The translations under genes were made by a program, and so were the position numbers. 64,000 bases of DNA from Sphingomonadales bacterium (GTDB taxonomy: Bacteria > Pseudomonadota > Alphaproteobacteria > Sphingomonadales > Sphingomonadaceae). Shown here in pieces: positions 56,824 through 59,297 of this stretch; within the stretch, counting starts at the first letter, position 1, and every line of letters begins with the position of its first letter. Below the pieces are notes generated by a model that was not told the origin of the DNA, made no database searches, and saw only the letters and a list, made by a program, of their open reading frames with translations. The stretch spans positions 12,673-76,672 of the forward strand of contig JANMDQ010000018.1 of NCBI GenBank assembly GCA_031376385.1, written 5' to 3'.

Positions 56824-57774
56824 ATGGCAAAGCGTTTCAAAGATGTACCCAATGTGCCGTTCGCGCCGGTGGCCGCCGTGCTGTTCGCGCTGGTCGTAAC
56901 CGCGCTGATGTTTGCGACGCCAGCTTGGCGGCTCGAACGGCTCGTGACCTTTACGGGCCTGTCCGACATTCTTTCGGCTGCGCGTCCGCCACTGGGTGAT
57001 ACAGCGCGCACTTTGATGGCCATCACATCGGGCCTTTTCACCTTCATTTTCCTATGGGCTGTTCTGCGACCGCTTGAAAAGCTCATTCACAATCGCGGCA
57101 GGGGGGCTCTCACGCGCTCTTACACTTTCGGAACGAAGCAAAACGTGGAAACTGCCCCGGTAGCTGCCAACACCAATGCTCCATCGCGCAAGCCGATTTT
57201 TGCAGCGGGAGATTTGGGTGCGCCGCTCATGTCAGATGCGGCTTTGTCCTCCGGGGGGGAGCTGTTTCTTGATGCCGCGATGATTGATGCACCTCTACCC
57301 GGCTCAAACTCAATTCCCGTTGACGCTGAATTACTGCATGATCATCTGCCTGCCGATGATATTCAGCAAATACCTTCGATACTGATCGACACGCCTGAAC
57401 CGGTTGTGGCGGAAACCGAAGTCGCTGCGTTCGAACCAGCCCCACAAGAAACAGTCATTGAATGGCTGTCGCCCGAAAAAGTGGCTGTGCCTGAAATCAT
57501 CGCCCATGAAGTTGCTGAGCCGCTGATGGAACCTTTTGTAGCGCCAGCGCCTGAAGTGGTTCATCCTTCGCCTGCAGAACCTGAGCCGATCTTTCCAGAA
57601 CCTGTATCTGCCGCTGTGCCAGAGCCCACCCTTCGCGAATTGCTTGTGAAGTTTGAGGCTGCGTTGAAGAGGCGTGAAGCCGTGGCAGGTCAGGACCGCG
57701 GTCCGTCGGCACAGATGCCTGAAACCACGGCCCAGTCTTTGCGAGATTTACTGGCCCATGGTCGCTTACGCTGA
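56824..57774 (+). CDS. Membrane-anchored hypothetical protein with acidic Pro/Glu-rich region
   Basis: Two N-terminal hydrophobic segments, PPLGDTAR and PIFA..DLG motifs, low-complexity middle, short C-terminal helices. Confidence 0.7.
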   Translation: MAKRFKDVPNVPFAPVAAVLFALVVTALMFATPAWRLERLVTFTGLSDILSAARPPLGDTARTLMAITSGLFTFIFLWAVLRPLEKLIHNRGRGALTRSYTFGTKQNVETAPVAANTNAPSRKPIFAAGDLGAPLMSDAALSSGGELFLDAAMIDAPLPGSNSIPVDAELLHDHLPADDIQQIPSILIDTPEPVVAETEVAAFEPAPQETVIEWLSPEKVAVPEIIAHEVAEPLMEPFVAPAPEVVHPSPAEPEPIFPEPVSAAVPEPTLRELLVKFEAALKRREAVAGQDRGPSAQMPETTAQSLRDLLAHGRLR

Positions 57775-58044
57775 CTCGACGGTCAGAGCCTCCACCATGA
57801 TGCGCATGGCGGGCCCCGTTAGATCAAGACGCGCCGTAATATCGGCCAGCAGGTGACCGCTGAGTGTGAAGACAGCCTCTGATATCGCGTCCAATTTGCC
57901 TTGTATGCAGCCATTTGGCGCAATCCGTTCAATCGTGACTTCATGCCTGGCCCCCGAAAATGTGATGCTGGCCCATGGGGTGTGGCGACTACCCACCAGC
58001 GCAAATTTGTCGCGACCAAAATAGCCTAGGATGACCGCTATCAG
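57766..58044 (-). CDS. Hypothetical protein (WASITFSGARH motif); start codon uncertain
   Basis: Frame open 57766-58257; plausible folded part begins near DPSRQL; candidate starts ATG 58257, CTG 58044, GTG 57996. Confidence 0.6.
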   Translation of the reverse strand: MIAVILGYFGRDKFALVGSRHTPWASITFSGARHEVTIERIAPNGCIQGKLDAISEAVFTLSGHLLADITARLDLTGPAMRIMVEALTVESA

Positions 58045-58253
58045 TTGACGGCTGGGGTCTCCTTGGCCTGTGGGCGGTCTTGAGCGCTGGCGACTAGATA
58101 AGCCTCGATCCTTATTCGCAAGCGCGGCCCCGGCTGTCGGCCGTTCCGCAAATCCTTCATCAGATTGGGGTCTCGCGCCACGCGACGACCAAATTGGCAG
58201 GGGCGTTCCCTGCTGTCTTTCAGGTGTTGCTCGATTCGCTTCAACAAAATCAT
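58041..58253 (-). CDS. Cro-like small HTH protein
   Basis: 70 aa, LLKRIEQHL...FGRRVARDPNLMKDLRNGRQP; GGAG SD 6 nt before ATG; divergent from the CI-like repressor. Confidence 0.72.
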   Translation of the reverse strand: MILLKRIEQHLKDSRERPCQFGRRVARDPNLMKDLRNGRQPGPRLRIRIEAYLVASAQDRPQAKETPAVN

Positions 58254-58281
58254 ACATGTCTCCATTCCTTCTTCGACTCGT

Positions 58282-58296
58282 GTTCTAGGAATGTTC
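58282..58296. promoter_or_regulatory. Alphaproteobacterial LexA (SOS) box
   Basis: Exact GTTC-N7-GTTC (gttc taggaat gttc), about 30 bp upstream of the Cro-like start. Confidence 0.7.
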
Positions 58297-58350
58297 CTAT
58301 CTCAACATGATTTTCCTACTTGTCTAGGAATATTCTTATCGCTATAGGAT
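58286..58350. promoter_or_regulatory. Operator array of TAGGAA/TTCCTA half-sites
   Basis: TAGGAA-tg-TTCCTA (58286-58299), TTCCTA (58313-58318), TAGGAA-ta-TTCTTA (58325-58338), TAGGAT (58345-58350). Confidence 0.7.
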
Positions 58351-58354
58351 TTTT

Positions 58355-58996
58355 ATGGATAATGTTCGTGAAACGCTGGACCGGTTGATCCGGGAGCAAG
58401 GAGATGACTATGCGTCTATCTCGCGCCTATTGGGTCGTAATGCAGCTTATGTGCAGCAGTTCATCCGTCGGGGAACGCCCCGCAAACTGGATGAAGATGA
58501 CCGCCGCCTGCTCGCGCGCTATTTTGGCGTTGATGAAGGTGTGCTGGGTGGTTTTGGCGCCCCTGTTGTTGCCGCAAAATTTCCTCTGAAACTTGTTCCG
58601 CGCTACGCCCTCGGTGCGTCGGCGGGGCCAGGCAGTCTGCCAGAGGATGAGGCCGCCATGGGCCAAATTGCCTTTGATCCCAAATGGCTCCGCACGCTGG
58701 GCGTATCCGCCACAGTCCTCTCAATGATCCGTGTCACAGGTGACTCTATGATGCCCACCCTGTCTGACGGGGATGAGATCATGGTCGACAGCAGTGACGC
58801 GGCGGAGGCGGTGCGCGATGGTATTTATGTGCTGCGGATGGATGATGCCCTGATCGTGAAGCGGATTGCCCCGAATCCCGCGACGCGGCGCTTTGCCATT
58901 CGCAGCGATAACCCGGCCTATCCCGATTGGCCCGATTGTGATCCTGCTGCCGTTATCATCATTGGCCGCGTCGTCTGGGCTGGGCGCAAGCTTTAG
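58355..58996 (+). CDS. CI/LexA-like repressor (HTH + S24 peptidase)
   Basis: N-terminal HTH (ASISRLLGRN.AY.QQFI.RG.P), ASAG cleavage-type site, GDSM catalytic Ser, VKR catalytic Lys. Confidence 0.93.
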   Translation: MDNVRETLDRLIREQGDDYASISRLLGRNAAYVQQFIRRGTPRKLDEDDRRLLARYFGVDEGVLGGFGAPVVAAKFPLKLVPRYALGASAGPGSLPEDEAAMGQIAFDPKWLRTLGVSATVLSMIRVTGDSMMPTLSDGDEIMVDSSDAAEAVRDGIYVLRMDDALIVKRIAPNPATRRFAIRSDNPAYPDWPDCDPAAVIIIGRVVWAGRKL

Positions 58997-59084
58997 GGTC
59001 AACACTTTATTCACTTAAAAAAATGGCGATGCCTTAGGCACTTCAGGTTAGTACGAAGGCACAATGGAATGTAAGGGTAGCGAC

Positions 59085-59297
59085 ATGACGGAATCTGCAC
59101 TCACGGTGAATCGCACCTCTGCGGATTTGGCAACAGAGATGATGGCTCTGTTCGGGAATGAGGCAGGCGGAGAGGCTGCTCGCCGCGCCAACTACTCCCG
59201 CAATTCTGGTAATGTCGTCGGCTATTGCGCATGGCGTCAGGCGCAGCGGCTTATCATTATTCTGGGGGCTGATGTGTCTGCGGGCACAATTCATTAA
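59085..59297 (+). CDS. Small helical hypothetical protein
   Basis: 70 aa: FG..AG.EAA.RA..SR..GN...YC.WRQ..RLI..L...GTIH; co-oriented downstream of the repressor. Confidence 0.6.
   Translation: MTESALTVNRTSADLATEMMALFGNEAGGEAARRANYSRNSGNVVGYCAWRQAQRLIIILGADVSAGTIH

Follow-up and report, generated by a model that had tools for sequence, protein, structure and literature searches.

In phage lambda, the cI mRNA transcribed from PRM is leaderless, and with Tum the coliphage 186 possesses a phage switch that is gated by the LexA protein of the host. For the phage CTXphi, the section of PMC3323433 on this system describes, with reference to Quinones et al. 2005 and Kimsey & Waldor, that the divergent rstR-rstA promoters are jointly controlled by LexA and the phage repressor RstR, and that selection retains the LexA site whereas the promoter around it changes. 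A further section of this source mentions the luxR promoter of Vibrio fischeri, at which LexA and LuxR share one site. In the part of PMC4551915 on gp7-LexA of the Bacillus phage GIL01, host LexA is wired into the lysis/lysogeny decision, and the part of PMC13148647 on Francisella describes a domesticated phage-type S24 repressor in the DNA-damage response, with LexA being absent in some intracellular lineages. Here, the spacer between an S24 repressor gene and a divergent Cro-like gene of a Sphingomonadales bacterium was analyzed. It lies in a stretch of 64,000 nucleotides (nt), referred to as the window, of a metagenome-assembled genome of 3.12 Mb from sediment; all positions are those of the whole stretch. 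The spacer (58254-58354) separates the repressor gene on the plus strand from the Cro-like gene A on the minus strand, which is followed by gene B.

We propose, with a probability of about 60%, that this locus is a chromosomal switch of the cI/Cro type, at which LexA and the S24 repressor serve as alternative or fused locks and in which the repressor mRNA is leaderless. There are good grounds in the sequences for the view that the divergent promoter can be locked by either of the two proteins. The comparison of orthologous spacers shows that one position may hold a predicted LexA box, a palindrome or a fusion of both. In the literature, no paper on the Sphingomonadales module was found.

Repressor spacer of a chromosomal core locus

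The repressor matches the Pfam family PF00717 (1.1e-16), and its residues 10-212 align to PHROG phrog_4 'transcriptional repressor' (1.8e-38). The motifs ASAG (Ala-Gly site), GDSM (Ser) and VKR (Lys) are conserved to at least 90% in 117 distinct repressor orthologs. No helix-turn-helix (HTH) match was obtained in Pfam; the N-terminal 65 residues are nonetheless highly conserved in these orthologs. With the S24 domain, the Ala-Gly site and the Ser/Lys dyad present, the protein is predicted to be a self-cleaving lambdoid repressor of the cI type.

Of 61 related genomes, 57 contain this repressor, among them 35 of the 36 genomes of the genus, mostly as a single full-length copy. The relatives have the same flanking genes, which, from the translations of the open reading frames (ORFs), we take to be glycosyltransferase, O-antigen-ligase-like and TamA/TamB-like genes. 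Furthermore, the exact 15-mer TCCTACTTGTCTAGG, which comprises a half-site, the -35 hexamer and the left half of operator O2 (see below), occurs in at least 120 genome records, about 90% of which belong to Sphingomonadales (Croceicoccus, Rhizorhabdus, Erythrobacter, Novosphingobium, Sphingobium, Sphingopyxis, Sphingosinicella, Sphingomonas and others). Residence in a prophage or another mobile element was rejected, since the locus is single-copy, syntenic and present in nearly all genomes of the genus and across the order. Due to the single copy, the same neighbours and the order-wide presence, the module is, as judged from these genomes, a chromosomal core locus of Sphingomonadales. The repressor would work like cI, but it is no prophage repressor.

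A preliminary description of this DNA had listed a LexA motif, palindromic operator sites, a GANTC site and promoter hexamers in the spacer, and all of its motif coordinates were borne out when the sequence was read again. GACTC, a GANTC site, is present at 58275-58279, and GTTC-TAGGAAT-GTTC at 58282-58296 shares its spacer with the perfect palindrome TAGGAAtgTTCCTA at 58286-58299, the putative operator O1. All eight core bases of this predicted LexA box are matched, and a T stands ahead of each repeat. A half-site TTCCTA follows at 58313-58318. The half-sites described at 58325 and 58333 form TAGGAAtaTTCTTA (58325-58338), the putative operator O2, the right half of which is imperfect in the window (one mismatch); a TAGGA half-site is located at 58345-58349. 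TTGTCT (58320-58325) is followed after 15 nt by GCTATAG (58341-58347) and after 7 more nt by the ATG at 58355.

At the position of O2, TAGG-N6-CCTA is conserved across Sphingomonadales. The half-sites start at 58315, 58325, 58335 and 58345, which is an exact 10-bp phasing with alternating orientation. These four half-sites (58315-58348) read CCTA, TAGG, CTTA and TAGG, cover the -35 hexamer, the spacer and the -10 hexamer, and permit two binding registers, TAGG-N6-CCTA or CCTA-N6-TAGG. The last of them (TAGG, 58345) is specific to the lineage of the window.

The palindrome cluster is significant, and GTTC-N7-GTTC alone is not. Within 97 nt (58258-58354), five TAGGA/TCCTA words occur versus 0.04 expected, and no second site of the genome has at least four such words in 97 nt. 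The pattern TAGGA-N4-T[CT][CT]TA was detected twice in the whole 3.12 Mb, in both cases in this spacer (O1 and O2). GTTC-N7-GTTC occurs three times in the window versus 1.77 expected, a number that was reached in 23 of 100 shuffles, and 128 times in the genome.

LexA box and palindrome among orthologous spacers

GTTC-N7-GTTC is the LexA motif of Alphaproteobacteria and is listed for Caulobacter (PMC9578287). In the host genome, lexA (C25:6314) has GTTCCGCGTTCGTTC 33 nt upstream. The same motif is present before recA (one mismatch) and before four genes which, read by eye, we take to be uvrD, dinB, imuA and rmuC.

For the order-wide comparison, 114 distinct orthologous spacers were used, a set that had been enlarged with loci found through the 15-mer given above; palindromes were counted with up to one mismatch to TAGGA-N4-TCCTA and LexA boxes only if exact. 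A LexA box and no palindrome is present in 17 of these spacers, 27-38 nt upstream of the repressor -35 hexamer, and a palindrome and no LexA box in 20 (offset -33 to -35 from this hexamer). Both are superimposed in two spacers, those of the window genome and its sister genome only, and neither was detected in the remaining 75; the lineage counts do not represent phylogenetically independent events, although the boxes comprise at least five or six separate positions or sequences. The LexA box of the window has an offset of -38 from the -35 hexamer and lies 2 nt from GANTC.

The class with only a LexA box comprises at least eight genera (Rhizorhabdus, Erythrobacter, Allosphingosinicella, Sphingosinicella, Sphingomonas, Porphyrobacter, Novosphingobium and Altererythrobacter) and includes two members of the genus of the window. 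Among cultured, non-pathogenic strains, Sphingosinicella terrae KCTC 52780 and Novosphingobium profundi F72 belong to this class, and Parasphingopyxis lamellibrachiae DSM 26725 has only the palindrome. In the boxes of the LexA-only class, the GTTC tetramers do not vary, whereas no two N7 spacers are the same; all of these boxes have a single orientation and lie 2-7 nt from GANTC. Beside this, four lineages of the genus that have lost O1 have an exact box over the Shine-Dalgarno sequence and start codon of gene A, and those of their relatives that keep an O1-like site have the same box there with one mismatch. Exact boxes occur in 9 of 89 distinct 220-nt upstream regions versus 0.58 in shuffles (shuffle maximum 4), and they are 12-fold denser in the orthologous 220-nt upstream regions (10 in 20 kb) than in flanking DNA (19 in 462 kb). 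In a metagenome scan, the 20-mer hybrid site was matched once, at an unrelated locus 3' of a gene for a substrate-binding protein; about this number is expected by chance.

The claim that host LexA acts at this site thus obtained a divided answer from the conservation of GTTC-N7-GTTC in orthologous spacers: most spacers of the same genus lack the motif over the palindrome, an outcome that the preliminary description had named as a refutation, whereas in the wider comparison, which reverses this, 17 lineages across the order have the exact box at the same position in place of the palindrome, and the genus itself shows two further solutions. Because lineages without the palindrome carry it there, the box is, judged from the spacers, no by-product of the palindrome, and the predicted input of LexA into this spacer is a recurrent and selected feature.

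Several findings weigh against the proposed joint control by LexA and the S24 repressor, three of which concern the LexA box. First, a matrix built from nine SOS boxes of the host scores the box of the window with 11.6 bits in comparison to 14-27 bits for the training boxes, and 188 positions of the genome score as high; this matrix is too small and dominated by spacer composition, so that the score was not relied on, and the low value arises because the spacer of the box is the palindrome, which is atypical and contains GG. Second, most spacers of the same genus are devoid of a LexA box at O1; of the closest relatives, only the sister genome (90% identical) has retained the box over O1. Third, about 50 further high-quality LexA boxes are located on a repeated element in the genome and could titrate LexA.

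In the light of these findings it might be assumed that only the local S24 repressor acts here, and that GTTC-N7-GTTC is an accident of the palindrome and a fortuitous upstream GTTC, which LexA does not usefully bind. The TTC of TTCCTA indeed supplies three of the four bases of the second repeat, but about five specific bases beyond the palindrome are needed in addition, to which no other O1-bearing spacer (20 in total) comes near; GTTC-like bases in the four positions before TAGGA are found in none of them. The lack of enrichment in the window, the modest matrix score and the absence of the box from most same-genus spacers, in which unrelated bases flank the palindrome, are consistent with such an accident. 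However, the sister genome keeps the box even though the neighbouring bases have changed, and both the offset of -38 and the 2-nt distance to GANTC match the boxes of palindrome-free lineages. An action of the S24 repressor alone therefore seems unlikely.

Promoters on both sides of the spacer and proposed regulation

The preliminary description had also suggested that the repressor mRNA may start at its ATG, and the conserved geometry of the promoter supports this. Among 115 distinct orthologous promoters, 84 have a distance of 33-37 nt between the first T of TTGTCT and the start codon, which amounts to exactly 35 nt in 56 of these 84. In these 56 sequences, T(-12) (55/56) and A(-11) (56/56) are the sole invariant bases between O2 and the ATG; the other four positions of the -10 hexamer and the following 6 nt are variable, and the CCTA of O2 is conserved. 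The -35 hexamer accordingly occupies -35 to -30, and the spacer comprises 17 nt. ATG is the start codon in 82 of the 84 main-class orthologs, 30 of which have a Shine-Dalgarno-like word and 54 of which have none. Such a word is present in 13 of 26 variants with longer distance (e.g. GAGG in L015 and L020), and GTG or TTG starts occur in 4 of these 26 in comparison to 2 of the 84.

A promoter scan of the E. coli type did not score the repressor promoter, because its -10 hexamer has no final T. The promoter fits the alphaproteobacterial pattern with CTTGTC-17 nt-CTATAG (58319-58324 and 58342-47); in Sinorhizobium meliloti, the promoter pattern is CTTGAC-N17-CTATAT. On the basis of geometry and conservation, we assume with good confidence that the repressor mRNA is leaderless, with +1 being the A of the AUG. 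In its classical position between -35 and -10, O2 is probably the site of autorepression.

A fourth point against the proposed reading is AGGA at 58346-58349, 5 nt before the ATG, which could be the Shine-Dalgarno sequence of a transcript starting further upstream and keeps a leadered alternative alive. It belongs to the lineage-specific TAGGA half-site (58345-58349), a possible weak Shine-Dalgarno sequence that overlaps the -10 hexamer. If the mRNA were leadered, TTGTCTAGG...CCTA would be operator DNA only and TAGGA/AGGA the ribosome-binding site; the workable distance of AGGA in the window, the Shine-Dalgarno-like words in 30 of the 84 orthologs and the failure of the E. coli-type scan would be in agreement with this. 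It is nevertheless improbable, since the majority of the orthologs lack such a word and, between O2 and the ATG, invariance is limited to TA at exactly -12/-11. Likewise, the spacing stays at 35 +/- 1 nt despite the drift of the sequence, almost all starts of this class are ATG, and it is the longer-distance variants in which Shine-Dalgarno-like words and GTG/TTG starts are more frequent. The leaderless mRNA is thus retained as the preferred interpretation.

GANTC is the methylation site of CcrM, and YGAKTCK was proposed as the context of GcrA-activated methylated promoters in Caulobacter (PMC7987155). With 107 of 114 orthologous spacers, GANTC at this place is among the best conserved features of the spacer, and on the gene A strand it is preceded by Y in 105 of the 107, has K in the centre in 92 and is followed by G in 97. 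In 72 of 87 loci, it is located at most 60 nt from the start of gene A, with a peak at -28. This conserved YGAKTCK site suggests an input of CcrM/GcrA into the divergent promoter.

The order of elements on the gene A strand is constant: LexA box or O1, 2-7 nt, GANTC, about 20-30 nt including the Shine-Dalgarno sequence, and the start codon. The box and O1 are located at -73 to -56 from the predicted repressor start and thus outside the core of that promoter. A TA-initiated hexamer is always present at the gene-A-proximal end of O1 or within the LexA spacer; in the window this is TAGAAC on the minus strand, from 58287 down to 58282. If this hexamer serves as -10, the start point of gene A would lie approximately at GANTC. 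The odds are about even that O1 and the LexA box cover the -10 of the divergent promoter, as deduced from these distances; for a control of gene A-B by the O1/LexA site in general, the odds appear higher. The fifth point against the proposed reading is that the -35 of the divergent promoter is not recognisable, and that the E. coli-type scan of this region found nothing.

Two candidates for this -35, TTGAGA and TAGACA on the minus strand, were dropped, as their distance to a -10 is inconsistent across the lineages. The latter is contained in CTTGTCTAGG at 58319-58327, matches TTGACA in five of six positions and faces gene A, so that the repressor -35 overlaps a -35-like hexamer of the opposite direction; no consistent -10 partner for it was found across the lineages. 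The only other CTTGTCTAGG in the genome is located at G000:C5:106315, where it appears as GGACTTGTCTAGGAAAAGCATCATG, with a half-site and a -35-like word shortly before an ATG. This site may be due to chance or may be a second target of the local repressor.

According to the proposed reading, the S24 repressor would be transcribed from TTGTCT-17 nt-TATAGG as a leaderless mRNA starting at its own ATG, as the geometry indicates, and would shut itself off through O2. The gene A-B operon would start near the YGAKTCK site, with O1 covering the TA-initiated hexamer just upstream. It is likely that the S24 repressor binds the palindromes and LexA the direct repeat. Since the LexA box and O1 share 11 bp, the two proteins should exclude one another; at this site either protein alone would close the gene A-B promoter, and both would never be bound together. 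The conserved Ala-Gly, Ser and Lys residues indicate that both repressors cleave themselves upon stimulation by RecA. If both are cleaved after RecA activation, full induction of gene A-B would need the depletion of both pools, and the double lock might raise the damage threshold or delay induction in comparison to a single lock. GANTC may add an input of the replication state.

That another factor reads GTTC-N7-GTTC, namely the gene A product or a winged-helix response regulator, is barely credible: direct repeats with an 11-bp period would suit OmpR/PhoB-type proteins, but the motif is known as the SOS box of Alphaproteobacteria (PMC9578287) and precedes lexA, recA and the other host genes named above, and gene A is present in all lineages whereas the repeat occurs in only about a sixth.

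Module members, further LexA boxes and known systems

The coordinates of all features are compiled in Table 1. Gene A is conserved in 87 loci, with F21, G22, D28, P29, G38 and R39 being invariant. Its structural model is a four-helix bundle (predicted local distance difference test, pLDDT, 83), and the best fold matches are the 434 repressor domain, P22 c2, SinR and 434 Cro (template modelling score about 0.6; root mean square deviation 1.7-2.4 Å; weak E-values), which is consistent with a predicted fold of the Cro/cI type. A word-index search for gene A homologs revealed three close relatives only, none of them named.

For gene B, 76 orthologs share the conserved motifs WASxTFxGxRH, GHxVADI and EALTVE. 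Its model represents a small alpha/beta protein (pLDDT 92.5) with a faint likeness to phage tail-completion and neck proteins. The gene is nearly confined to the order; in a sample of 301 genomes of the class, 8 contained it. For genes A and B, sequence searches in Pfam, NCBIfam, PHROG and PDB gave no match. Gene B has no ATG, GTG or TTG near the gene A stop (58041-58046); a CTG overlaps the TGA (C-TGA) where the relatives have the usual ATGA overlap, and the sole ATG in the gene B frame (58257) would overprint the whole gene A.

Downstream of the repressor gene, a 77-aa ORF showed tblastn matches of 37-68% identity in more than 70 orthologous loci, where it is usually located just downstream of the repressor. 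No Pfam match was obtained for this ORF, which may be a fourth member of the module.

Table 1. Positions of the features of the repressor locus in the window and examples of the repeated element outside of it (aa, amino acids; TSS, transcription start site).
Feature	Position	Strand	Remarks
Gene B, second gene of the divergent operon	57766..58044	-	about 92-105 aa (about 92 if the start is CTG 58044)
Gene A, 70-aa Cro-like HTH protein	58041..58253	-	ATG at 58253; GGAG 6 nt upstream
CcrM site GANTC	58275..58279	-	CGAGTCG on the gene A strand, YGAKTCK context
LexA box GTTC-N7-GTTC, predicted	58282..58296	+	28 nt upstream of the gene A ATG; -73 to -59 from the predicted repressor TSS
Operator O1, putative, perfect palindrome TAGGAAtgTTCCTA	58286..58299		11 bp in common with the LexA box
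Half-site TCCTA	58314..58318		directly upstream of the -35 hexamer; within the order-conserved 15-mer TCCTACTTGTCTAGG
-35 hexamer TTGTCT, repressor promoter	58320..58325	+	TTGTCTAGG (positions 0-8) nearly invariant in 56/56 main-spacing sequences
Operator O2, putative, TAGGAAtaTTCTTA	58325..58338		fills the -35/-10 spacer (-30 to -17)
-10 hexamer TATAGG	58343..58348	+	T58343 and A58344 at -12 and -11 with respect to A58355
Repressor gene, 213 aa, predicted HTH and Peptidase_S24	58355..58996	+	predicted leaderless, TSS at or next to A58355
77-aa ORF	59064..59297	+	downstream of the repressor gene
Repeated element, examples	L115 (G000:C28:375800-378200), about 621 and 915; L118 (C5:12800-14600); L119 (C21:46800-48800); C22:78533-78782		

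The repeated element with LexA boxes mentioned above is present outside the window in about 50 copies of a 200-300-nt non-coding element, which form two subfamilies and are each headed by a strong SOS-type promoter. In the first subfamily, this promoter is TTGACA-17 nt-TAATGT with the LexA box ATGTTC-N5-ATGTTC over the spacer and the -10; the second subfamily reads ATGTTC-N5-ATGTTCTTGCAAnGTAGGAnATTTTCTGGTG. The elements end in GGTGTCAACCATGTGTCAACTTTG or GTGTGACCTTTGTGACC and often occur in tandem. No Rfam match was obtained for this element, and BLAST matches numbered 32 in the window genome versus 0-1 in 40 relatives, one of which was the sister genome. The copies look like a burst, specific to this lineage, of a mobile or small-RNA-like element under LexA control.

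A further LexA box, TTGTTCATCCTTTGTTCGA, was detected at G000:C15:300666 in the spacer of two divergent genes, one of which is of the XRE-type HTH kind (187 aa) and the other of which encodes 161 aa. As read by eye, this pair resembles the sphingomonad gene-transfer-agent control pair; if it is the control of a gene-transfer agent, its switch would be under SOS control.

Joint control by LexA and the repressor of an element is known from CTXphi; new is its predicted occurrence in the core genome of a large and environmentally important order. The comparison catches this rewiring while it is under way. At one locus, four states are found, palindrome only, LexA box only, box on the ribosome-binding site, and both fused, and this series offers tractable natural material on the handover of a promoter between two repressors of the same signal. 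The locus also lets the added value of a two-repressor lock, such as a higher threshold or a delay, be examined. Furthermore, it points to an uncharacterised gene pair, predicted to be damage-inducible, in many genera of Sphingomonadales, including Novosphingobium, Sphingopyxis, Sphingomonas and Erythrobacter; on the promoter of this pair, SOS, a cI-like repressor of its own and CcrM methylation seem to converge. A wider interpretation is put forward tentatively: an ancient, domesticated cI/Cro switch might constitute a second DNA-damage checkpoint interlocked with SOS, in which LexA and cI operators are interchangeable, were repeatedly replaced and are fused here, while a GcrA-type site reads the replication state. 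The output would be two order-specific proteins with an undescribed damage-induced function.

Like the lambda immunity region, the locus comprises a divergent cI-like S24 repressor and a Cro-like gene, palindromic operators at both promoters and, as predicted here, a leaderless repressor mRNA. Unlike lambda, no prophage is present, and the second gene of the Cro-like operon matches no family. The operators are also arranged differently than in lambda: the -35/-10 spacer contains one site, a second is about 39 bp distant, and half-sites with 10-bp phasing are present in addition. A predicted site for host LexA and the conserved CcrM site further distinguish the control region.

In coliphage 186 with Tum and in GIL01, LexA controls an antirepressor or is the sole repressor, whereas in the present locus LexA would share its site with a cleavable resident repressor. 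In comparison to Francisella, the Sphingomonadales host possesses a canonical LexA, which appears to be interlocked with the additional repressor. The luxR promoter of V. fischeri differs in that LuxR is an activator and the locus is no switch of the cI/Cro type. The closest precedent is the rstR-rstA region of CTXphi, a divergent spacer between a repressor and a replication gene, which shares with the reading proposed here the joint control by an element repressor and host LexA. However, as a filamentous phage CTXphi is mobile, and its RstR does not belong to the self-cleaving S24 repressors. The module described here is a fixed locus of a whole order, both of its repressors are predicted to be RecA-sensitive, and their putative sites are fused or replace one another.

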